Shown in pieces: positions 8,221-54,094 of a stretch of 64,000 bases of DNA. The stretch spans positions 19,679,048 through 19,743,047 of the forward strand of contig OZ316891.1 of assembly GCA_973895155.1 (NCBI GenBank), read 5' to 3'. A program made the position numbers and the translations under genes. This DNA is from Marsupella aquatica (lineage: Eukaryota; Plantae; Marchantiophyta). The notes beneath the pieces were generated by a model that was given only the letters and a program-made list of their open reading frames with translations, was not told where the DNA came from and ran no database searches. Every line of letters starts with the position of its first letter. Position 1 is the stretch's first letter.

Positions 8221-11200
8221 TCAAGATGCTTTGGCCTCAGAAATCAGGCTTTGAGGTGTGGCCACTTCTAAATGGCTTTTCCAGGACAGATACGCATTCC
8301 AGAAGAGGGCAGTGAAATTTGCAAAAGCCACCTGCACGTTGCATCAGTATAGCAAATCAAACAAAGCCACGGCCTGTCACTTCCAGCCAAAATGACAAAA
8401 TCATTCACCATTTGAACGAAGCCGAACAAAAAGCTTCAGTCATACAGATTTCAAATGCTAGAAAAAATCAAGTTCTCAGTCCACAAAGCCGAACTACCAG
8501 GAGTGGAGACAAGAAAATTGGCCTTTGCAAGCAAATGTCGCCTTCCATTAGAAGACAGTCTGGGGAATACAACTACTTGATTGGCACAGCAAGGCAGACA
8601 AGAGGGGACTTAGAATTGTCCCGGCAGCAAAATTTGAATGACTTGCCTGTAATTTTAGCGGCACCAACCAGAAATTGATGATTTGAGCAGGAATCCAAAT
8701 TTGCCAATTCACCAGTACAGCAGACCACCAGTCCTGTACCACCAATCGTGGCATATATATACAAATAATTAACATTTCCCCCGTGGCAAGCTATCTCTAG
8801 CAAGAAATGAATGAAATTGACTCATGTAAATAGAATTGTCAGGAACATGTAGTGGTCGTCAGATACATCCTAAAATATGTCCTATAGAAAAACTCACTCG
8901 AGAGGTACAGATATACAACCTGTTTCAGCTTAGCGGTGATCTGCTTAGGATTTCCTTCCAATGTCATCAAGCAACTGATAAACGTTGCGATAAAGGTTGG
9001 GGAAAAGAGGAACTGACACAAACAAGAAACCACCAAGAATTTGAAGATTCAGTCCTTGAAGCATTAACAAGCCAGCATTAAGACACTTTCTTTTGAGACA
9101 ATTGGAGCGGCTTAGGACTGTTTTATCTCCTCTTGCATCTGAGAGGTCAACTAGAGGGCTGTACAAAAGCAATAGTACCTGATCGAGGACCAGTCGAATG
9201 CCAACCCCAGCAGGCCCACCAACTGTTACCAGTTTGCTTAGAGTAGAATACCTAATCAGAAGTCACATTTGCAACACACTTAAAACAGAATCATTAAGAC
9301 ATCACGAAAGTCAACTCTTACAAGAATCCAACTATACTAGACTATGTATGTGCCAAAATAAAGAAAAGAAATTCTGGTATCAGAGTGACAAAAGTTGGAG
9401 GGTTTTCAACGCACCAGAAATGTAAAGTGGGCCCAACCAATCCAAACCCTAAAAATGTCATGGCAGCAACGCGCTTTCCATCCAGGTTTTCAGCTTTCTC
9501 CAAATAAAACTGCACGCACATGGACAAGGCTTGGCCATGAGCAATACAAGACGCGGACCATATTTTTAACAGGAAATCTAATGAACGTTTCTAAAGGATT
9601 GTCATAGAATGAATATTATCGTGCAACTGTTGCTCCCAGGGTGGAGGGGGACAGGGACTAAAAGCTGCTTGCCTATCCATTCCCCATTCCCTCTGTTTCC
9701 TGAAGGTTCAGTGCATCTCATATTCGGCGATTCACTGTACCATAAATTGAAGTCAAATTGACGATGGGCTGGACCAGCTGAAGGGCAACCATGATCTCCA
9801 CAGAGCCAAAATATTGACTCGCCTTCCAGACCCCGCCAGAAGAATCGCCTAGTGAAGTCAACTACGGACAATTGCAAGGGCAGAGAGAGAAAGAGGAGGA
9901 ACTCACTTGGCAAAAGACATCTCCAATGAAAGTGAGGATAGCTGACGTCATGGACTTTGTGAGAATTGGGTTTGTGTCGAGTAATCCGAGGTACCTGCCA
10001 ATATGAGATTGCAGAATAAATATACTAACACTGCTTAAACCTCGCATGACAAGGGAACCGTTCTAGTAGTCCAATTTTCGGCAGCACAGGATGGCAGACT
10101 TATATACAGAGATTACCATTTTTTAGCAACTGAATTGACTGTACAATTCAAGCGTTTTGTTTTGGCCTTTTTTCATTTCAATTTCCCTCTGGAGGTTGGA
10201 GATTGCGCAAGCTGAACGTCTGTAAAGATCCAGAGACATAAATTTGACCAACTCCAGGGACGAGAGAACGAATGAAGGTTGGGCGACCCAATCTAGATGA
10301 GGGCATTGGTGAAGGACTTTTCAATAGGCTGGCTAGCTGGACAGGTGAAGAATTGAACTGATGAATGATTGAATCAATCAAAGGATTAGCAGTGACTAAA
10401 TTTAGCGATTGTATGCATGGATGGAGGGTTGGATGGGTGGACGGATGAAAGAATTAGTGTATGAATGGATGGAGGGACGAAAGAAAGAATGTGTAGATGA
10501 ATGAATGAATGAAAGAATAAAATGTATGAAACGAGGTTTTGAATTCAGGGGGGAATCCGGTGCCTCGTTAAACAGATGAACGTAATCTATTGACTACAAA
10601 AGAACCAAAGGATCAGACTACCCTGCCGGTCTGATCACTTCGTGATCGGAAGTGCACCTCTAACCAACAGTATGGGCTTAGGCAACTCCGGGGCTCCAAG
10701 GAGCACGGACAGCGAAGAAACCATGCTGCAGATGCTCAAGCCAAGCCAGCTCAAGAGAGCAATTACACTACAGCTAAAATTCGTCCATAGACATTGGATG
10801 CGGACTACAGAGAGGAACCGTTACCAAGCCCAGATTCGCCATCTCCCTTGGTCTCCCGCTCCACTACTACTGCTTCCTCCACCATTTCCATTTCCACCTC
10901 CTCGTCCTCCTCCTCCACTACCCCGGTTCCCAATCCCGCTCCCATTTCCGCCGCCACTCTCAGCGGACGCATAGCGACGAGACAAAACACCGCGCGCCTG
11001 GAAAGCAAGCAAAGAAGAGGTCGAATTGTGCGACTCCCTGCTCCCAAACTGCCCACTAGTGCAGCCAACGAAGGCAGAGGAAGCAGAGGCCGGGTTGCTA
11101 CGGCCGCGTAGAATCGGTGCCGCAACATTCGCAGGCGCGATGGAGATCCGCTGTGCAGGTTTCCATCCTCCACTACTGGTGTGCGAGGCGATGGAGCTCA

Positions 11201-11312
11201 GCCGGTAAGAGAAAGATTTGGCAGAAGCTGAAGCAGTGCTGTTGGTGGTGGGCAAGAGGTGCCGTCCAAGCAGTAAGCGCCCGGATTGCCCTCGCAACAT
11301 GTTGCACGTCAT
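8221..11312 (-). CDS. Mpv17/PMP22 (PXMP2/4) family membrane protein with N-terminal organelle presequence and Gly-rich linker; 7 exons
   Basis: Exons 11312-10825, 9994-9907, 9509-9415, 9251-9179, 9012-8920, 8733-8647, 8331-8221 splice in frame. Motifs WYLGLLDTNPILTKSMTSA..GDVFCQ, GPTLHFWY, RLVLDQFLFSP, NWQIWIPAQIINFWLVP, FWNAYLSW. The last intron has a GC donor. Confidence 0.95.
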
Positions 11313-12169
11313 TGAGAGGGGGGGGGGGGGGAGGATGATTGACTGGCTGTATAGTACACTACTACCACTGAGACAGTTCTGTCATTCCTTCATTCACGAG
11401 ACTGATTAGAAAACGCTTCACGGAACACCAACAATCGTCCTCCGAACAGCTTCTCCAAAACCGGTCTTCCACGTCGTCTGGAACCCACTCTTGTCTAGGG
11501 TTTATGGTTTTTCAGGGGTTTTATGCTTTTCCAAGCCATGCAACACCGCAAAAGAGAATAAATGCACCGAATCACAAGACGAGGCCCACAAGTGCAAAAA
11601 CCCAAATAAAGGGAGGACAGGATTTATGTTCAATCCTATTCAATTCAACTCAATGCCTGAGCATCCAGGGAATGTAGGGTTTAAGGTTTACCAGGTATAT
11701 GTATATTCAGGTTTCATTGGGAATAACAATGAACCCCAAAGAACCTGCTCGACCACAGTTGTCATGAAAAGTCAGTGTTCATGGCGTCCGTTGCTAAAGT
11801 ACATATAGCAAACAATTCATGTTTATTGTCGTAAACGATGGCTATTCAAACCTGGCACAATTTTCATAAGGTTAACAGATGTAGCAAAGAGTGGGTATCA
11901 CTGGAGGACCAATTGTAATAATTCTGATCTTATCACTGGCAAATTTTTGGAAAGGCTAACTGAAAATAAATGCTGATAAACCCTACGTAACGTTTCAAAA
12001 TCGTGCCAGGTAATGCTTCCAATTAACCTTTTTATTAATTTCAATTACCAGCTACGTTAATTTTTGCGCTTTCTGTGCGGACTACTCAAGTGTATGCCAT
12101 CATTTTCTTTGCGCTACAGACTAGATTTCAGTGGTGCTACGAATGTGAGCAAGCTGGGCGGTGGGAGAT
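11313..12169. promoter_or_regulatory. Head-to-head (bidirectional) promoter region with three telo-boxes and a site II core
   Basis: TAGGGTTT at 11496-11503 and 11675-11682, AAACCCTA at 11978-11985, GGCCCA at 11583-11588, and a long G run at ~11318-11331, all between two divergent start codons. Confidence 0.55.
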
Positions 12170-13976
12170 ATGGCAGCAAGGGGCGCACTAGTTCGACGTG
12201 GAGCTCGTTTATCTCAGCTGTATTTGACTTCGGCGTCCCCTTCGTCCAACGCAGCTTCTTCTTTATCTTCAACTTCTGGTAGAAATCAAAGCTTGGTCCC
12301 CCTTTCTGGAATTCCTGCATCCTTTTCTTCTTGCTATCTGAACCCATGTGAAGCCGTGTTTCGTACTGAACTTGAAACAAAATTGCTAGTAGTAATCATA
12401 CTCACGGATTACGGATTCATCGCCTGAGGACTTCCCCATGGAATTGGCAGCTCTATCGGTCAGGGTTTTAGGTTTTGGCACTGTCTTGTGTGAGTGTGCG
12501 GATGTGAATGCTGATAAAGTTGTGTCACCTTTCACAATTGGGCCAGTTTTGAATAGCCATTGTGTGCTACATGTAGTTCAGCAATGGACGCTTTGAACAT
12601 TAGTAGGAGCTGGAGTCCAACTCGGACATGAAATGGTCTTGATGAGCATGATGATCAATCCCTCCTGGTGACTGTCTGAATTGAATTTTCACCGCAGGAA
12701 TTTGTGTAGATCTTGCTGTTCGGTTCTGAACTGCTGGCGTTGCAGCTTTCACTGCTTAGTAAAACCGCCTGAAGGAACCTCAGAGTTCTCTTGCTTCATA
12801 CACCAGAATTGTGCATGACCTACAGTGAACTAGAAATTATACTCATTAACTGTAAGTATAAGATAGCGAGAGAGGTTCCTGATGTACATTAGCATGGCCT
12901 ATTGGCGCAGGTATAGACTTGCAGGATTTTCTGCGAGCTGTTGGGAGGGGCGTGGACGTGCATGCTGAAAAGACGGCGAAGGAGGCCGAGTCATTATCGA
13001 TTTTTTTGCAATTTGGAGGTCGAAGCTTGAAACGACTTGGTATCCCTTGGCACCAAGTACGTGTATTTCTGCACTTTTTCCCAAAATAGGGTAGACTGTA
13101 CCCAATCAACATGAATCAAAGCTTGTGCTTTGTATTGATTGAATAATCTTTCGCGGCTTGAGATACATATTCAGTCAAGCATTGCTGCTGAAAAGCATTT
13201 GAATAATTCTCAACGGCTCTTTCTTTTGCCGATGAACTGTTGCAATGCACGATTGAATGAAATGCTTCGGAAACTTAAAAGTGCTTGGTATCTCTTCCCA
13301 AGAGGTTTCTTTATTTCTGCTTTCTACACAAATATGTCATAGGACATCTAAATCGGGGACTAACTTCTTGCCGAACAAACAATTCTTCCTGTCCTACCAC
13401 CTAAACCTTGGCTTTGAAAATCATTTGAAGAGTTATAGTTGGCGTTGGTCCGATCGATGAATTGTTGCAATGCATCAATAAAGTAGTATCTGTTCTGCCC
13501 ATCGTTTCTCACGTGGAAAGCTGAAAGTGATGAGGCTGAGATACTGCTTTAGCTGCTAGCTATATGTAATCCGGTAGAAAGTGTTGGGACTGTGATATTG
13601 TTAAAAGATATTTCTTGCGACAACGCTGGCTTGGTAATGGATGTAAGCAAGAGCTTTTCAAGCCCGTGGAGATTCATCTTATTGGTAGTAAATACTTCAC
13701 CTTTAGCATGAACATTACCCGCACTGCATAACACAGAAAGGTCCCAGGCAGGGAATATGGAAACCATTCATTTTTCAGGAAAAAATATCCGTGAGACTTG
13801 ATAGCTCTGCATTGATTTGGACAACAGGGATATGTTCTTGTACAATTTCCTTCTACGGTTCAAATATTCGAGTAGAAGATCCTACTGGTTCAAGAATACC
13901 TGCAGTTGTCATACCCAAATCCCGGGATCGTAGACCTCCTACAGGTGGAATCGACAGTATCGTCGTACTGAAGTAG
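12170..13976 (+). CDS. IGR-motif protein (mitoribosomal mS41/Fyv4-like), divergent; exons 12170-12278, 12911-13056 and probable exon 13707-13976
   Basis: Exon 1 MAARGALVRRGARLSQLYLTSASPSS.. resembles a mitochondrial presequence. Exon 2 GIDLQDFLRAVGRGVDVHAEKTAKEAESLSIFLQFGGRSLKRLGIPWHQ fits the IGR pattern (FLxxIGRG..H..K...LKxLGIP). Exon 3 contains TQKGPRQGIWKP, resembling the plant IGR tail THKYRLGLWRP. Splice phases are compatible. Confidence 0.75.
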
Positions 13977-14019
13977 GTATGTGCAGAGTCGCTTAACTAA
14001 TTTTAATTCACTCGTGCAG

Positions 14020-15858
14020 TTGGAGACTGGCAAGCAGAGAAATCATCCGAATTGCGCGAGAAACCAGCTAAAGGAGGGTGTAAGGTTGAGAGTTTTTTAT
14101 CATTACTCAACTAATGGTGTTCAAGAAAGTGATGACGGCGTCTCTTGCTGCAATTCCGCTGTTAGGGACCCACCGGTCCACAGCGCTTCTCAATACTTAC
14201 CGAAATCTCAAGTTTTAAATCAAGTCTTGACAGTGCTCAATGAGATTTCCAAAACAGATGACCTGTCTCACAAGTTGGCCCCTTTTAATGGAAAGATTTC
14301 ATTGATGGATGGAACGACGATCATGAAACTGATGAACGACAAACGTTTGTGCTTCAGTTTTTATATGTGGTTGAAGCGGCAGGACGATTATACTCCGGAT
14401 TTGACATCCTTACTGACAGTTATAAGATTTCTTTTGCTCACAAACAAGTGGGAGAAGCTGATTATTGTCACCCAGGATTTCTTCGACTCGGGATTCGAAT
14501 TGGATAATGGGGCATATTGCAGGATCATCAAGGAGGCAAGCTTGAGTGGCGCGATACCGGTTTGTGAGTGGTGGTTTCAGAAGATGAAAGATCGCGGATG
14601 CTGGCCAGACCAGACCACATACAATACCATGATACACGCGTATGCGTTGGCAAGGATGCCAGAGAAATCATTTGCTACCTTTGACGACATGAAAGCGATG
14701 GGCATTGAACCAGATATTAACACGTTCTGTCACCTTCTCAATGCTTGCCAGAAAACCGGAGATCCAGTAACTGCGCACAATATCTTTCTGCAGATAAAAA
14801 ATCATGGATTGACGCCAGATTTGGTCACTTACAGTATTCTTCTTGATACCTACGGAAAGCAAGGAAAAACCACAGAAGCTGCAGCTTTGTTCAAAGAAAT
14901 GCAAGATGCTGGGTTTACAGCTGATGCCAAAGCTTACAACAGTCTCATACATGCATACGGGAAGGCGGGGATGATGGATCAAGCGACCTCAGCGTTCAAA
15001 GACTATCAAAAAGTAGCAGATCAAAATCCAGACAAAATAGTATTCTGGATGATGCTGCACTTGTATTCCAAAACTGGTCTGCTACAAGAAGCCTTAGCAG
15101 TGAAAAGAATGATGAGGGTTGCGAAGATACCAGTAGATGTGTCTTGCTATGCGGATTTGATTGATGGTTTCAAGCGGAAGGAGAGGTGGGAGGACGCAGC
15201 AAGAGCCTTCAAGGAGATGCAGCGATATAAATATCCAATTGGAGAGAGGATGTACGAAATGATGATGAAAATCTACTCGAAAGCCGGACATCATGTGGAG
15301 TGTGAGAGAATGTATGATGAGATGATAGCGAAGGGGTTCAGAAATAGACTGGACATGTACGAGATAATGATAAATATTTATAACCGAACAAACAATATCA
15401 CAAATGCCACTCGGATCTATGAGCAGATGAAACGGAATAATTGTATTCCAAATCGAAACATCTGCAATACAATGATCCACATCTATAGCAAGGCTGGTAT
15501 GTTACCAGCCTGTGAGAAAATAGCTGAGGAGATGGGAAGTTTCGGAATCAAACCTAACAAAAGCACTTTTCTTACCCTCATCAAGGCGTATACTGCTTAT
15601 GGACAGTATTTTAGTGCGATGGATATGTATGACATGATGCAACAAGCTGGAATTAAACCTGACTATGAGCTGTCCGAGCTAATTGTGGAAGTACTTCTTA
15701 AGACAAGTCAAGTGGAGAAAGCGGAGAGATTCTTGAAAGAGATAATAGCCGCAGGCATAAACCCCAACAAACGCATGGTCTCTGCAGTGCTAAGTGCTGG
15801 AGGGGTTGTAGAATTATCGAAACCCTTAGCTATTTCGAGAACAAGAAGTCCAGACTAG
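14020..15858 (+). CDS. P-class pentatricopeptide repeat protein exon (~13 repeats, no E/DYW domain); 5' end supplied by splicing
   Basis: 35-aa repeats, e.g. QTTYNTMIHAYALARMPEKSFATFDDMKAMGIEPD. In-frame TGA at 13969-13971 and first in-frame ATG only at 14303. Strong branch point and acceptor CTAAT..cgtgcAG ending at 14019. Confidence 0.93.
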   Translation: METGKQRNHPNCARNQLKEGVRLRVFYHYSTNGVQESDDGVSCCNSAVRDPPVHSASQYLPKSQVLNQVLTVLNEISKTDDLSHKLAPFNGKISLMDGTTIMKLMNDKRLCFSFYMWLKRQDDYTPDLTSLLTVIRFLLLTNKWEKLIIVTQDFFDSGFELDNGAYCRIIKEASLSGAIPVCEWWFQKMKDRGCWPDQTTYNTMIHAYALARMPEKSFATFDDMKAMGIEPDINTFCHLLNACQKTGDPVTAHNIFLQIKNHGLTPDLVTYSILLDTYGKQGKTTEAAALFKEMQDAGFTADAKAYNSLIHAYGKAGMMDQATSAFKDYQKVADQNPDKIVFWMMLHLYSKTGLLQEALAVKRMMRVAKIPVDVSCYADLIDGFKRKERWEDAARAFKEMQRYKYPIGERMYEMMMKIYSKAGHHVECERMYDEMIAKGFRNRLDMYEIMINIYNRTNNITNATRIYEQMKRNNCIPNRNICNTMIHIYSKAGMLPACEKIAEEMGSFGIKPNKSTFLTLIKAYTAYGQYFSAMDMYDMMQQAGIKPDYELSELIVEVLLKTSQVEKAERFLKEIIAAGINPNKRMVSAVLSAGGVVELSKPLAISRTRSPD

Positions 15859-17742
15859 AAAGCCTTTTGTTGAACTTAAACTCTTGGTCCTGATGACATA
15901 TTTAGGTGCATTCCTCCGCACGTGCTGTCATGTCCGATACCACTAAGGTCTTGTGGACCGACTTTTTTCTTACCCTACCTAGTCCGACGTTTGTGGGGAC
16001 TTAGTCTTGAAAATCTCAAATCTTCCAAACTACAATCTTTCTTGAGCTCGGACTGTCTCAGTATAATCTTTGCCTGTCTTTACCTCGTTGGTACATTCGT
16101 CTTGCAAGTGACAAGGAGCGTGGCAGGTACTTATGCAAGTTTTTGCATTTGTCCTGGATTCCTGCGAAGAGGATTCATTACGACATCAATCCCAAATCTT
16201 ATCCGGTGAGCTTAAATGGGGTTTCCTTCTTCCCAGCACATGAATTCTTGAAGTCAATAGACATAAATTTCTTTCTGCAGATTGGCAGTATCACTAGGCA
16301 AGTTTCAAGATTAGCACGATGTATCTTTGCTGTATCCCCTCCAGCTATGGAGGGTTATATTTGTCGACGCCTTGCGTCTCAGCTAAAAGTTGTTTCCCCG
16401 TTCCCTGTTCAGATTCTGATGGCACCCCGGCTACGCATCCATGGGTCTACGTAAATTATGCAACCTTGGAGAGGGATAGAAGTTGTTCATTTTTGGCAAA
16501 AGTGGAGGTTTCAGTAACAGATGACTGCAGTAGACTGCTTCTTTACTGAAAAAAGAAGCTTACTGTGTCTTGTTTTAAGAGTAGAGTTGGTGTAATACTT
16601 GATCTAGCCGTGGGGACTAGTCCTGTAAAAATGGAGTGAAATTATTTTCTCGCTCTAGCTCAATGAATATAGTAATGGAAGGGTGTTTTCCATACTTGAA
16701 TAAAGCAGATTGAAGCATTCCAAGAATTCGCATCACTTTCCGAAAGACATGTATGGCCACCTTTTCTTACGGACTTCACTTATGATATATTTTCAATTAT
16801 GCCACGTGATTGTCTAGTACAGTGCAGTAATATATGAAATGGGGGCCCTGGCCCAGCCCCTAAACATATACCATTTTTCTCAGTGCAGATAGGCAGACAG
16901 ACAACGCTAGTCTTGCGTCCTAGAGCACTCGCTAAGGTCCTGAATGCTCAAGTCAAGTTCATCCTTCGTATGGAATTGTTACTTTCAGAGACGGTCAATT
17001 ATTTCCTGAGGTTTAAGCTTCCTTAGGGAATAATTGCTTGCTCAAGGAAATATATGATTCGACAGTGTCAAGTATGATACGTTTGAGATTCAAAGGTATT
17101 AAACCCATCAAAGGTTAAGGATTGTTGACACCATGAAGATCAACTCACGCAATCGACGAAGCTGTTCTCTTCAGATTTCGAGTGGGACCCAGAGAAGGTG
17201 GGGATATCAATTTGCGATATCTATCTGGTAAGGTAGCTCGAATCTCCTTGCGTTCTGTACCACCACGAACACTTCATGTGCATAGGTAGCGCATGCAGGA
17301 TTTCACTTCCATTGCTAGCTAATTTCTGTTGGCTAAAAGTGACGCCTGTGAACTCGTATGTCGTCAGTTTAAACGTCCACAAACCAATTGCTATTGTGAA
17401 GTTCACGAGAACCTTATCTTTCCAGGCGCGGCTACAGAATGAAGAGTCTAAAGCAGTGGTAATGACGTCGTGGTCTCGACCGCCTTTACTAATCCTATAT
17501 GAACGTCTAATCTCCATGTCCAGCTATTCTTGCCCGCCTGTGATCCCAGCTTAAACTACCAATCAAGTATAATCCACACATACCCATGCGGATCTAGCGT
17601 GTTGCTGTCACCACTCCTCTTCAAACAAATACAGAACTGCCATATTGAGAAATGAATGTATATGTTTGTACAGCCCAAGGTAGGTGAAAACCTTGTTTTA
17701 CTAACTACTGTAGAGGAAAATTGTTTAGCTTTCCACCATCTA

Positions 17743-47500: not shown

Positions 47501-49756
47501 ACTGCATCTTCATTCGAACGCTTGGATTAATTGTAGGTCGGGGACGTTCTGTGGTTGCTGATGGAGGAGTGTCAAGGTACCGTTCCCACGTAATGTACAG
47601 GACCCGATATAGTATACCGTAACGGAGGAGCGACGCTTCAGTAGACAGTGTGCACGAATATGGGCGGGAGGAAGGGAGGGAGTCGTCAGGGCGAGAAGGT
47701 CGGGCGAGGGAGGGTGTTTTGCAGAAGATCAATTCTTCCTCTGCCTTCAGTCTTCTTGGGGCGTGCGTGTGGAAGATCGTTCGATTTCATCCTGTTGGTT
47801 GGAGGATCATTGCGTTACTAGAAAGAGGGAGCGGGGGAGACGTTTCACAGTCCGGGCGTGGGCGGGCGGGCAAATTAACACGCACATACTACTACTACTC
47901 ACGCACGCGGGCAGGAATGGAAAGCATGCACGCAAGGGAGGCGGGGTACGTTTGTTTGGTGTAACAAGAGAGAAACAGCGAGCTACAACAAGCAAGCTGG
48001 CTTATGGCTGCATCATTCTGGAGTCCGAACGAACGCTACGAGGTGGTGCTGGGAGGCAGGCAGGGAAAGAGGGAGGGAGGGAGCGAGCTGGATGCGCGGA
48101 TGCTGGAAGTTGGAGCACGAAATGCATGCAAGGAAGCCGAGTGTCGTTGTCTGAAAGAGAATGCAGCACGGTGTGGAAAGAGCATGAAATGCATGCAAGC
48201 GAGAATGGTGGCTTGACAGAGGATTCGGGGTGGTACTCTGTAATGCGAGGGGTGCGATTCGTTCGGCGACCGTGCCTCCATAAGAGTCGCATTGAAGGGG
48301 GACAGTACAGAGAATGAATGAACGAACGAAGGGAGACAGAAAGAGAGGAGAGATACCCATGTGCACGTAGTGTGTTGAGTGATCAACGACAATGTTGTTC
48401 TGCTGATTAAACGGCGTTCTTGTATGAGAAGGATCAGAGAAGAAGAATTTTGTCTCTGCGTGCATGCGTGCGTCGCGGCTTCAGTAGTCTCAACGACAGG
48501 TTGTGACTCGTACGTCGGTCGCGGAGGATACATAGGCAGCCTCTTTCGGCTCGCTCTCTCGCACTGGCCTAGGCTCCTAGGCCGGGGCTGGGTTGGGGGC
48601 GCGGACCTCGAGTGCCCGACCGATCAGTAATTGTGAGGCAGGCTACGGCCGCTTCGCTCACCCTCAATTAGATCGGTCAATTTCGAACGAAATTCGATAC
48701 GGCCGATTGGATCGTGCGGGAATTCAAGCAAGGGTCATTGCCAGCCTGTATCGGCGAGACGCGTGAGTCGGTGTCATTGTCATTGTCGTCCTCGTACGAT
48801 CGACGTTTGTTCTTGTGGGGATCTAGCTGGATACACCTCCGCGATTAGTTGTCTTTGAAAATTCGCGTTCCATGTCGCGATCATAGGAAAAGTTCAGGGG
48901 AAGTCTTCAAAGGGAAATTTCGTCGTTGAAAACATTGTCTTCAACTTGCGTGGCGGGAATTTCTTCGGACTTTTCCCTCCTCCTATACATGCTGTAATGC
49001 AACGAACGGACGAGAGTCGTCAAGGGAATTGAACATCGTCTTCGTCTATCGTCTGCAATTTCAGTTCGGCAGGGGGCAAACTGGTACGAGTTGTCAATGT
49101 GGTTGCGGGATATGTAACTCGCTTTGGTTCAGTGAGCCTGCTTGCTTAGTTTCCATTGAGATCTTTTGCTGCCCGTTAGCGCGGTTGCATGAAACTACCA
49201 TCAGTTTTTAGTTTTTACTGCATTTCATTTCCTCCTTCCACGCGCGCATCGAATTGGGCACGATTGGGGTTTCACTGTTCGCTCCCAGGCTGTCCGGTCC
49301 AATTTCACAATTCTTTCTGTCTACTGCCTAGTCTTGAAATTCTCCGATTCATATCTCTGTCCACTAGAATATAATTATATGGCCTCTCAACTTGGGTCCA
49401 TTCCTTCCTCTTGAACATTGCGCATAATCTGGCGGTCAACTTGCGCAGAAAACCCAGAGCCTCTGTCCGCCAGCCGCGCCAAATTTTCATTACTTGTAAA
49501 CACTTGTAAACACAAATATCAGAACCCTGACGATGACCAGGTTAAAATGACTATTCACGGGACTCGAGTCTCATCACTTTGAAAACGCCATTCAACTTTT
49601 CCTTTGCAGAAAACTTCCCTCATGTGTCATTCTTGGTTGTGCACGTCCGCCTTGGATTCTTATTCGGTATCGTGCATTTGAACCTCTGAACTACTCGTGT
49701 AGTATTTCTATCAATTCGGGGCTCTCGGAGACCTCGGATTAAGAGGATCTAGAACC

Positions 49757-52700
49757 ATGGGACCGTCTTCCTTTAGAGACCGGCTGAACGATAAGATTGG
49801 CTCTCTTTCTCTGCAGCCTGTGGAAGAGGTACCAACAAAGAATTCAGCAGAATTTTTCGGCTCTGGCCTCGAATTTGATGTGGGCAAACTTGTGGAAGCG
49901 AAGCATCGAATTACGGGCGGGGAAACGCATCGCTCCCTGGACGAGAAGTCGTTCAGTGAAATAATGAATTTCACTGATACTATCATGCGGCCCCTTCGCG
50001 CAATGGAAACAGTGAAAAGCTCGGACTGTCTGGAAGGCATGGTTTCGCCGAGCACGAGAGGGTGTGGTGGTTCGAGCACTCCTCGCTTGCAGCCAACTAT
50101 TGAACCACACATGATGGTGTCAGCCGGCTGGGAGGCCCTGCGGAAGTCTTTGGTTTATTTCAGAGGGCAGCCGGTTGGCACCATAGCCGCCTCTGATCCA
50201 ACGGAAGATTCTTTGAACTACAATCAGGTACGTCATCTCTCGACGTGCGACCACTTTACCTGAGTTCCATTGAAACCATTTTAATAGAGATCATCGAACT
50301 AATAGCTTCCATTTGCAACGAGACAGACTAATTTATTGCTCTCCAGATACAATTGCTTTATAGAATTCATTTGGAAGCAATGTCAAGGAAGTGAGTACGT
50401 TACGGTCGGATGTGGAGGGTTTTCACGGGTCACCCTAACCTTTTGCCGCTATTTCGGCCTCCGTGTCTTGCTGCTGTTGCTAGCTGCGCAGTCGAAGCTG
50501 CCTTGCTCCGATCTGAAGTTTTGACTACATGCATGATCGGTTGAGCAATTGTCACACCCAAATTCGTCGTGGCAACCGCATCGCTAACAGTGCAACCGAC
50601 CACCCCGCCTCCCTCCTTGCCTGCTCGTGTTTGTGGCAAAATTTCTTATGTTTATTGTCAGCAGATTGGCCCAGGCAGATTGAATTCTTGGGGAAATTTT
50701 CAGGAGATTAAGAGCTCTTCGTGTAACCTGTCCAATCGAGCTAACTGTTCTTGATTGCCTGGGTTATTCTTCCTTTCGTGTCAGTCCATTGCTTCAATTA
50801 GACCAAAGGTGCTTTATAGTGAAGTCTTTTGAATTGCTCATCATTTCCATTGTACGAATTATCCTACAGTGATCGACGTCATCAAGGTATACTGTCTGGA
50901 CAAGATTCTAACTGACGACTGTCGATTTCTGTTGCTATGCCTGCATAATTTCGTTGAGAAATGATGGACACTTAGGGTCTCAGGTGACCCTTGAGCGGGC
51001 CCTTGAGAGGTTCGGTTGCGAGGTAGTCGTCTGTCGGGTTAGATACGTTTCTTCTTTGTGCTGCTCTCTGTCCTCATCACTTCAATTTCACAAGACGCTC
51101 CGTTTTCGAGAGTTTCTTCTGCAGAATTCGTCTGGTCAGTATTTTAATTTGATCTTGAGAGTCTGAATGTACGTAACGCGAAGAGCTCAGAGTATTATAT
51201 GAATCGATGCCTTAATTAAACTTCAGCACATTGATTCGGACGCTATTTCTGTAATTCGAATCCAAACTGATTGGAGCCTTCAGTAGCACTGCATGCGTAT
51301 GCGTTTAAGGTTTACTTAATTCTAGGACTTCAGGCTGGGATTCTGCTGCTATTGAGGCTGTGTAAGACTTCGTTGAATCATTGATTGAAGGCGTTCAGTA
51401 GCACTGCATGCGTACGTATGCGGTTTAAGGTTTACTTCTAGTCATGGATTCTGCTGATATTGAGGCTGTGTAAAACTTCTTCGAATCATTGATTGAAACT
51501 GCATATGATCTCATTTCACTTCGTCAGCATTTTATGTTTGGCGACTGTGTCACTTCCTTCCAGTTTGCCGAGCATGCCCGTGAACGACCTTTGCTCACGT
51601 TTTCTCAGTTCTGGGTCTCATATCAGTTGTTGTTGCTTACCCAAGTTTAGACAGGTTTCAGTGCGTTTTTCTTTGATGGTTCGTCAGGATTCCTAGCTTC
51701 TATGTCAAAATGATGCAGCGCCTATAATACCGCCCCGATGACCGTAGAACATATCAATACCTACGGTGCACTTTTGATTGGAAATAATATTACCTCCCAG
51801 ACACAACTACCGCGAGAACGACCGCAACGACCGACGTTGCAAGTATAAAGCACAGGCAAAGGGTTCGGACTTGGCCAACAATTCTGTGAGGGATCTGCTT
51901 GCCGTTACGTTTGAAAAAATGAAGCGAAACTCAAACGGTGGACTACGTTCGGCGAATACAATTCTTCGTTAGCAGATTGAGCACTGTCTGAATTCTCAAC
52001 TTAGCAAGTAACGTACACTCGATGCATACGCGGGATCCGAGCCCAAGTTGTCTAAATGATTTGACAAAATGATTGCATGGGGTGCGCGCAGGTTTTCGTG
52101 AGGGACTTTGTTCCTAGCGGCTTGGCCTTTTTGATGAATGGCGAACCAGAGATTGTGAAAAACTTTTTATTGAAAGCGCTCCGTCTTCAGGCATGGGAGA
52201 AGCATATCGATTGTTTCACACTCGGCGAGGGGGTCATGCCCGCCAGCTTTAAAGTGCTGCACGATCCAAGCCGCAAGTTCGATACAATGATAGCAGACTT
52301 CGGAGAAAGCGCGATTGGGAGAGTCGCCCCCGTGGACTCGGGTTTTTGGTGGATCATTTTACTTCGAGCTTACGTGAAGGCTACAGGAGATTTCAGCCTT
52401 GCGGACATGCCTGATTGTCAACTCGGGATGAGGCTTATATTGACGTTGTGTCTCTCAGATGGCTTTGATACATTCCCAACACTACTCTGCGCGGATGGTT
52501 GCTGCATGATTGACCGCAGAATGGTATGCCACGAAATAGCAGCTGGAGATAGTTACATCTGAGTGTTGTTTGAACATGAGTTCTACCTATCGTCCAAAAT
52601 GAGTTCCTGTAAACTGAATATTACAGTTGTTTAGCCCTGTGAAAGTTGACATGTCGTTGTAATATCAATCTGCGCAGTTCTAATCCTCACTTTGCAAGGA

Positions 52701-54094
52701 ATTGTCAAGATTCAGATGTCACAACTCTCATTTCTGCTTCCAACACGTCAGACAAATTCAGAGATTCAAACACATCTCGGGTGTTTGTTCACTATGAATA
52801 TCCTGGGAATCTAATATCACAAATGAATCATGAAATATCAGGACTCAATCTACTTTCTGGACATAATTATCTGGAATGTGAACAGCTTTTCATATATGCA
52901 ACTGGTGTTTTATGCATGCAGGGAATTTATGGTTATCCTATTGAGATTCAGGCGCTCTTTTTCATGGCCTTGCGTTGTGCAAGAACCCTCCTGAAACCGG
53001 AAGCTGGAGGCAAAGAATTGTTGGAACGGATTGACAAAAGATTGCATGCCTTGAGCTTTCACATTCGGGGGTATTACTGGCTGGATCACCAGCAGCTTAA
53101 TAACATCTACCGCTACAAAACGGAAGAATACTCGCAAACAGCTGTGAACAAATTTAATGTCATCCCGGATTCTATTCCTGATTGGTTGTTTGATTTTATG
53201 CCTATGAAAGGAGGGTACTTCATTGGAAACGTTAGCCCGGCTAGAATGGATTTTCGATGGTTTACTATCGGTAATTGCGTGGCCATTCTATCGTCCTTGG
53301 CAACTCCAGACCAGGCTTCAGCGATTATGGATCTCATAGAGGAGCGTTGGGAGGAACTTGTTGGATACATGCCGATGAAGGTGTGTTACCCAGCATTAGA
53401 GGGGCACGAATGGAAGATCACCACAGGTTGTGATCCGAAGAACACCAGGTGGAGCTACCATAATGGAGGATCCTGGCCAGGTAATTTGTCGATCTCTCTG
53501 TTCAGAATGTTGATAATCTTCAAGTTCCTAACAAGCCTAAACATATATCCGTAGTACATACTGGAGTGTTAACTAGCAAAGCAAGCTTTGAAACCGTGGA
53601 ATACGTGCAGCCAGTACAGTATCAATTTCGCATTCTTTTGACAATTGAGTGCCAAGTCAATTCTACCGTATCCAGTCCAGTCACTTGTAGCATTAAGACT
53701 TGTCCCGGTCCATTAGTGGGAAATTTTATAAGGAACATTTATGACAGGTAGAGTCGTAGAGTTAGACCTGCTCTCATATTGCGAACAAATATTTGGTATT
53801 GCAGTTCTTCTCTGGATGTTGACCGCGGCCTCCATCAAAACGGGACGGCCCCAGATCGGGAAGAGAGCGATTGAGCTGATGGAAGCACGGTTGTCGAAGG
53901 ATGGGTGGCCAGAGTATTACGACGGGAAGTTGGGGCGCTACGTAGGGAAACAGGCCAGGAAGTTCCAGACCTGGTCTATTGCTGGTTACTTGGTTGCGAA
54001 GATGATGCTGGAGGACCCTTCACACTTGGGTATGATTAGTTTGGAGGAGGACAGGAAGATGAAGCCTTCACTCGTTCGGTCCGTCTCATTTTAA
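49757..54094 (+). CDS. CINV: Cytosolic alkaline/neutral invertase (GH100); 4 coding exons
   Basis: Exons 49757-50227, 52092-52523, 52922-53480, 53805-54094. Motifs [74 protein letters not shown]. No transit peptide. Confidence 0.97.
51269..51498. repeat. Intronic tandem duplication (~113-bp unit x2)
   Basis: TTCAGTAGCACTGCATGCGTA..GGATTCTGCTG..TTGAGGCTGTGTAA..GAATCATTGATTGAA occurs twice. Confidence 0.88.

Follow-up and report, generated by a model that had tools for sequence, protein, structure and literature searches.

An mS41-PPR chimeric gene in the liverwort Marsupella aquatica and its probable origin by capture of a presequence

How does a gene for a pentatricopeptide repeat (PPR) protein begin when the exon that carries the repeats offers no early start codon? 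This question is raised by a PPR exon in a 64,000-nucleotide stretch of the Marsupella aquatica genome (GenBank assembly GCA_973895155.1, contig OZ316891.1, positions 19,679,048 to 19,743,047 of the forward strand), which we call the window and number from its first letter. The PPR frame is shut upstream by a TGA at 13969-13971, ends with a TAG at 15856-15858, and has its first in-frame ATG at 14305. A start at this internal ATG was discarded, as both PPR contigs of sequencing run X1 differ from the window there and the orthologues do not conserve it. Instead, the exon belongs to a chimeric gene whose first two exons resemble those of the gene for mitoribosomal protein mS41 (Fyv4, the IGR family). 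We consider it probable that the presequence, and with it the likely promoter, was captured from an mS41 duplicate, and that exon 2 was kept mainly as a reading-frame adaptor. The parts of the gene are as follows.

12170..12278, plus strand: exon 1, with the ATG at 12170 and a presequence-like segment; a copy of mS41 exon 1, ending in phase 1
12279..12910, plus strand: intron 1, 632 nt, GT..AG (GT at 12279, AG ending at 12910); absent from record 1 of run X1
12911..13056, plus strand: exon 2, helices 1-4 of the mS41 SAM (IGR) domain, truncated and diverged; enters in phase 1 and leaves in phase 0
13057..14019, plus strand: intron 2 of the chimera, 963 nt, GT..AG, with donor CAA/GTACGT at 13056/13057; absent from record 1 of run X1
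13707..13778, plus strand: what is left of mS41 exon 3, the exon for helix 5 and the C-terminal W-x-P motif; decayed, in phase 0, immediately after an AG
14020..15858, plus strand: PPR exon, with a linker or N-terminal helical region of about 128 aa, 13 repeats of P type and a short tail; orthologous to MpPPR_48

When spliced, the three exons form a frame of 2,094 nt that encodes 697 aa without an internal stop. The acceptor of the PPR exon has its AG ending at 14019 and a CTAAT at 13997-14001. Exon 2 is needed for the frame, whatever its fold: exon 1 ends in phase 1 and the PPR exon begins in phase 0, so that joining the two directly shifts the frame and leads to a stop after 67 aa. Retention of intron 2 in the window would yield a 95-aa mS41-like peptide. 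A preliminary description of this DNA had proposed the same three-exon route, and the exon limits, splice sites and closing TGA that it named are all in the sequence. Its predicted protein of ~697 aa with 13 PPRs agrees with the 697 aa and 13 tandem repeats of 35-36 aa found here, whereas its position for the first ATG of the PPR exon, 14303, needs correction to 14305. The leader, which X1 covers, contains a start-stop element (ATG-TGA, 12143-12148) that shares the frame of the main ATG.

A contig of run X1 lacks both introns precisely, which shows that a close relative makes or once made the joined message. X1 derives from a relative of the window's species (127 differences in 2,117 letters, ~94% identical), and its assignment to RNA is the tool's guess. 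Its single 2,117-nt contig, made of pieces corresponding to 12117-12277, 12910-13056 and 14020-15828, carries both predicted joints, 12278>12911 and 13056>14020, each across a GT..AG intron; the second is the junction that the preliminary description had predicted. This spliced form is the sole X1 record placed on 14020-14075. The other four runs examined (X2 to X5) cover intron sequence and have neither joint, and X2, which contains 12160-14075 in one piece with zero differences, may be the source of the window. The chimeric gene is real.

Two further X1 records touch the locus. Record 2 (window 13036-13070) is a contig running from exon 2 into unspliced intron 2 sequence, and its 14 nt at the start of that intron are the only intron cover in X1. 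We first assumed that it was the unspliced form of the parent gene and then dropped this assignment, as the record cannot be attributed to either the parent or the fused locus. Record 3 (window 14228-15828) is a second PPR contig, 85% alike (237 differences in 1,601); its 5' part, 864 nt long, is unlike and could not be placed on exons 1-2 even at 80%. It is either a paralogue or a product of a second liverwort species in the sample.

Where did the first two exons come from? Exon 1 is identical to the mS41 of Calypogeia fissa (P0152) at 28 of 36 residues (78%), a match that 0 of 1000 shuffles equalled, and three PPR orthologues have N-termini that do not resemble it. It contains 4 Arg, 10 Ser and no Asp or Glu, with a hydrophobic moment of up to 0.69. 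This composition and amphipathy fit a presequence, and the exon derives from the gene of a mitochondrial protein. Exon 2 shares 31 of 49 residues (63%) with the same protein and scores 29.9 bits for PF09597 (SAM_Ribosomal_mS41, the IGR family), whose cut-off is 23.7. Searches for homologues returned the Marchantia mS41 (Mp4g18890), the C. fissa mS41 (P0152 and P0191) and other family members; PDB chains 6xyw_BC and 9evs_d, the only matches at E up to 10, were both weak (E 0.093 and 0.3). Judged by these likenesses, exons 1 and 2 both derive from mS41. This supports the view in the preliminary description that the start codon, presequence-like exon and IGR exon are borrowed from mS41; the domain match itself is partial (model positions 12-52 of 68).

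The remainder of the donor gene is still readable downstream. In canonical mS41, a basic helix and the W-x-P motif follow the exon-2 border. Searches of the six frames of all 64 kb with tblastn and an exon-3 hidden Markov model (HMM) gave their best match at 13746-13766, within intron 2 (independent E-value 0.068). Read in phase 0 after the AG at 13705-13706, the remnant is no more than one base change away from 20 of the 22 canonical codons, counting the stop, and has two codons in excess. Of 634 AG sites tested, this one ranked first, with a codon-distance score of 21 relative to a mean of 30.7 (sd 2.2), and none of the 633 others scored as well. One contig each of X4 and X5, runs of another close organism, has a 1-nt deletion at 13743. 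Because the decayed exon 3 persists in intron 2, it follows that a whole three-exon mS41 gene was duplicated with its introns and that the chimera skips the old last exon, a remnant that the preliminary description overlooked.

We infer that exon skipping fused an entire mS41 duplicate, introns included, to the PPR. Intron 1 would then be inherited from mS41, and intron 2 would consist of the old mS41 intron 2, the decayed exon 3, a spacer and the PPR acceptor. Run X2 offers a view of the donor's status: it contains a second exon-2 copy on a 12.3-kb contig with the same splice sites, 30 differences in 154 positions, and a depth equal to that of the fused copy (15.9 versus 15.6). Only exon 2 of this copy is seen, and at the 18 sites visible its residues are closer to those of canonical mS41. 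On this basis the donor was most likely a duplicate rather than the sole host gene. The preliminary description had suggested that a PPR retrocopy captured a host gene's 5' exons; mS41 exons were indeed used, but the donor looks like a duplicate and its part of the chimera kept both introns, so that this part is no retrocopy.

Relatives allow the divergence of exon 2 to be calibrated. A canonical-like open reading frame (ORF) from Logan, P0124, differs from C. fissa mS41 at 4 of 49 exon-2 residues, whereas the window differs at 18 of 49 (p = 0.0013), about four times more change. Another sequence, P0123, differs at 16 of 49 (p = 0.005), with F44C and K78I among the changes, and has no Pfam match at E 0.1. 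P0123 and the window have in common five residues absent from five canonical liverwort copies, two of which (D53 and V54) also occur in a lycophyte mS41, P0158. In a tree of 48 columns the window groups with P0123 at 84/83, no branch being starred. P0123, seen only in its mS41 part, is likely another fused copy, orthologous to the one described here. Genomic read-through ORFs of relatives also leave the mS41 family at the exon-2 border.

A further mS41 derivative occurs in C. fissa. P0188 (CAM6100944.1) is a decayed copy of exons 1 and 2 that has lost some of its SAM region by deletion and scores only 13 bits for PF09597; an unrelated 34-aa tail begins at the same exon-2 border, and the gene lies on another contig. 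P0188 could be a chimera of independent origin, perhaps with an incomplete gene model. This one gene model hints that mS41 exons 1-2 were grafted more than once.

The PPR part has its own relatives. It matches Pfam PPR families and comprises 13 tandem P-type repeats, whose limits were placed by eye: twelve have 35 aa and the other has 36 aa. An E_motif hit scored 19.8 bits, below its cut-off of 27.3 and inside the array, and no DYW was present among the 14 listed families; with its tandem 35-aa repeats and neither an E nor a DYW extension, the protein is a P-class PPR. Among the 120 listed of 159 homologues, four stand apart, from C. fissa, Riccia (two) and Marchantia paleacea. Identity is 80% to C. 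fissa P0001, 62-66% to the two Riccia and the M. paleacea proteins (60-61% to Riccia and Marchantia over the alignment) and 19-27% to the other 116 listed matches. By this ranking, the PPR is the orthologue of Marchantia polymorpha MpPPR_48 (MARPO_0078s0043). A literature search, with subscription journals outside its scope, found no paper on the MpPPR_48 gene. Close members of the group were confined to liverworts among the listed matches. Fifth and last repeat residues form pairs that are conserved in this group, with 12 of 13 agreeing with C. fissa and 8 of 13 with M. polymorpha, and they are mostly unlike the PPR code (about 4 of 13 look canonical). The PPR core is not accelerated relative to C. 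fissa in four relative-rate tests (chi2 0.17-1.23).

The orthologues bear on how widespread the fusion is. PF09597 was absent at E up to 5 from the four orthologues scanned, Riccia and Marchantia included, and the lineage-specific fusion envisaged in the preliminary description does look lineage-restricted. N-termini of the Riccia and Marchantia proteins are alike among themselves (0 of 500 shuffles as good), which suggests that the Marchantiales orthologues have an older targeting region of their own. Two C. fissa PPR models have an N-terminus of yet another kind and begin to resemble the window precisely at the acceptor. That N-terminus has no significant likeness to Riccia or Marchantia (41-70 of 500 shuffles as good) or to the window. 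A read-through of intron 1 (window 12338-12391) weakly resembles C. fissa PPR residues 112-130, just before the acceptor, a borderline likeness that 28 of 500 shuffles equalled; the PPR loci of C. fissa could also carry mS41-derived DNA. The mS41 and PPR copies of C. fissa are not neighbours, because they lie on different contigs.

Could the chimera be a minor read-through product, with the PPR made mainly from its own undetected start or 5' exon, or with a paralogue as the working copy? The unlike 5' sequence of X1 record 3 would fit such an arrangement, as would the C. fissa models whose likeness begins at the acceptor, and PMC6545605 describes read-through chimeras forming at rearranged gene pairs in Arabidopsis mutants. 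Yet the spliced form is the only X1 record over 14020-14075, and the PPR exon has no ATG before the unconserved one at 14305. The donor's own last exon has decayed, and no remnant of an orthologue N-terminus was found in 13779-14019, where 59, 498 and 340 of 500 shuffles were as good. We regard this explanation as highly improbable.

What did selection keep of mS41? We aligned 31 canonical proteins, comprising 29 of 44 search matches and two cluster members; the 15 matches dropped were genomic read-through ORFs, aberrant models, distant sequences and the decayed copies under test. In this family, conservation rises along the gene, with a mean top frequency of 0.29 in exon 1, 0.67 in exon 2 and 0.81 in exon 3. 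Identity of the window to C. fissa mS41 runs in reverse, falling from the 78% and 63% of exons 1 and 2 to 32% (7 of 22) in the exon-3 remnant. Thirteen residues are invariant in canonical plant mS41, of which the chimera keeps six, substitutes two and loses five by truncation (R87, K88, R98, W102 and P104); C84 is replaced in both the window and P0123.

The truncation also falls within the fold. An AlphaFold2 model of C. fissa mS41, with a predicted local distance difference test (pLDDT) score of ~90, has helices at residues 41-48, 52-63, 66-70, 74-79 and 84-99. Exon 2 ends at residue 86, which leaves the longest helix, helix 5 (84-99), almost wholly in the skipped exon 3. Without helix 5, the five-helix SAM fold of the chimera is predicted to be incomplete. 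When modelled alone, exon 2 of the window reached a pLDDT of 62.6 and a predicted template modelling score of 0.33, values that confound truncation, substitutions and a shallower alignment (16 versus 31 rows). The family HMM gave the N-terminus of the fusion 58 bits and an equally truncated C. fissa mS41 90 bits, and none of its matches extended beyond the joint between exon 2 and the PPR.

These observations bear on whether the mS41 part still reaches the ribosome. The preliminary description had suggested that the fusion could tether a PPR array to the mitoribosome. On this reading, the four remaining SAM helices would dock at the mS41 site of the small-subunit rRNA and hold the PPR array there as a new ribosomal PPR protein (rPPR) or message-specific translation factor. 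According to PMC7947838, mS41 binds small-subunit rRNA helices h6, h15 and h17, and according to PMC12672651, cauliflower mS76 (rPPR1) and mS83 (rPPR10) stabilise h6, one of these helices. Exon 2 also scores above its PF09597 cut-off, keeps 9 of 13 near-invariant residues and has decayed less than exon 3 (p = 0.02), and only about 4 of 13 fifth/last pairs look like the canonical PPR code. Against docking stand the loss of helix 5 with its five invariant residues, the replacement of C84, and the apparent persistence of a canonical-like mS41 copy. The relative P0123 lacks F44 and K78 and any Pfam match at E 0.1, and known rPPRs rank below generic PPRs (best mL102, 7.5e-44, versus PPR10, 2.7e-83). 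With the SAM domain cut before its longest helix, its own last exon decayed and exon 2 some fourfold more changed than in P0124, the tether is in our judgement quite unlikely. We are equally doubtful of the broader proposal that leafy liverworts built a new mitoribosome-docking PPR from an mS41 half-domain, with exons 1-2 acting as a repeatedly grafted cassette on the evidence of P0188.

Alternatively, exon 2 may be under weak selection unrelated to the ribosome, as an extended import or processing signal or as an element for stability or partner binding at the mature N-terminus. Its decay is intermediate, the window, X1 and P0123 all preserve its frame and length, and the window and P0123 share the five residues missing from the canonical liverwort copies. 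However, phase requires an open frame in any case, and common descent would also account for the shared residues, D53 and V54 among them being found in lycophyte P0158 as well. We consider this explanation unlikely.

Several points nonetheless weigh against treating exon 2 mainly as a frame adaptor. It is less changed than the exon-3 remnant (18 of 49 versus 15 of 22), retains most of its near-invariant residues and still exceeds the Pfam cut-off, and R73, lost in the window, is present in X1 and P0123. Exon 2 is therefore not plainly neutral and may retain some function. The amounts of change in exons 1 and 2 do not differ significantly (p = 0.16). Between the window and X1, the exon-2 codons show 8 non-synonymous and 3 synonymous changes (11 of 17 differences visible), which fits neutrality (p = 0.73), but these small counts do not differ significantly from those of a PPR subset (26/12 codons, 40 of 433 rows; Fisher p = 1.0), which for its part does not fall significantly under neutrality (p = 0.09). 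In raw divergence from X1, exon 2 (17 of 147) exceeds the PPR exon (96 of 1809; p = 0.005). Finally, the transcript evidence comes from one run, of a relative rather than the window's species, with its RNA status guessed.

Under the capture of a presequence and promoter from an mS41 duplicate, the probable course of events would be as follows. A three-exon mS41 gene duplicated at the DNA level would have come to lie upstream of the PPR gene, or the PPR gene behind it, while the canonical mS41 copy freed the duplicate from constraint. Read-through transcription with exon skipping would then have spliced mS41 exon 2 into the phase-0 PPR acceptor, and the captured front end would have supplied the PPR with a promoter, a start codon and a mitochondrial import signal. 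The skipped exon 3 would have decayed within the intron, and the truncated SAM piece would persist as a largely passive frame adaptor that must stay open for reasons of phase. Once imported and cleaved, the protein would take up the ancestral MpPPR_48-type role in mitochondrial RNA stabilisation, splicing or translation.

The surrounding DNA contains other genes. A multi-exon neighbour on the minus strand (8948-11381) stands head-to-head with the chimera about 1 kb away, and a shared promoter is possible. Its pieces resemble Mpv17/PMP22 membrane proteins, a likeness that Pfam did not confirm on single pieces. On the plus strand, 49703-54094 holds a multi-exon alkaline/neutral invertase (PF12899) with four exon pieces matched. 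Downstream of the PPR stop, at 16118-16154, 35 nt are replaced by 2 nt in X4 and X5, an indel between close relatives.

How does the chimera compare with known systems? Exons 1 and 2 are direct copies of those in the mS41/Fyv4/IGR family (PF09597; Arabidopsis At5g26800). The 31 aligned canonical members are stand-alone proteins of 97-132 aa, whereas the chimera lacks helix 5, is missing 7 of the 13 invariant residues and is fused to 612 aa of PPR. With its fold incomplete, it is not an mS41 member in the full sense. It shares 13 aligned repeats and the P-class architecture with MpPPR_48 and its Riccia and Calypogeia orthologues; unlike it, the orthologues of Riccia and Marchantia have their own long N-terminus without PF09597. 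The rPPRs (mS76, mS80, mS81, mS83 and mL101-mL104) have P-type arrays and a general PPR likeness to it. In a similarity ranking, the best of them, mL102 (E 7.5e-44), falls under designer PPRs, PPR10 and pTAC2.

The closest parallels are captures of presequences. In rice, rps11 acquired that of atpB, and in potato cytochrome c1 is joined to GapC exons. PMC8317393 describes an sdh3 with a heat-shock protein's presequence within the Cupressaceae and the Cephalotaxaceae. In such cases, as here, another gene's 5' exons and some mature sequence give the start and the likely targeting signal. The acceptor here differs in having nuclear orthologues with their own N-terminus, so that this is a replacement rather than the activation of a gene transferred from an organelle. 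Also unlike those captures, the skipped last exon of the donor is still readable and C. fissa has another copy of the donor exons, likewise decayed. In the Arabidopsis intergenic-splicing chimeras at rearranged gene pairs described in PMC6545605, an upstream gene is likewise spliced into a downstream gene across the intergenic region. Those chimeras accumulate in mutants, whereas the joint here appears fixed, is common to a relative and has a decayed terminal donor exon.

No published mS41-PPR fusion was found in a literature search that had subscription journals and preprint supplements outside it. A moss PPR review (PMC9459714) lists RRM, LAGLIDADG, SMR, NYN, CBS and SAP as extra domains and does not mention IGR, and a full-text find for mS41 in PMC8998825 and PMC12672651 returned nothing. 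Searching with exon 2 for longer homologues yielded none among 18 candidates, which is weak evidence. The same query against representatives gave five matches, all of 67-108 aa, although a fusion could hide behind a PPR representative. A metagenome scan produced 211 pattern matches and no relative. The chimera is a new case of a known mechanism and is apparently undescribed.

This locus preserves an unusually complete record of the birth of a chimera, as the donor exons, the skipped fossil exon, a parent-like copy and unfused outgroup orthologues are all readable, and its three donor exons serve as an internal gauge of the part that selection kept. It also cautions that a domain call of IGR plus PPR need not mean a ribosome-bound PPR. 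The tether, if true, would offer a direct test of how rPPRs are recruited to plant mitoribosomes. More broadly, the chimera suggests that the targeting peptide and promoter of an established nuclear PPR gene can be replaced by those of a ribosomal-protein gene, an exchange that would tie PPR expression to mitoribosome biogenesis.

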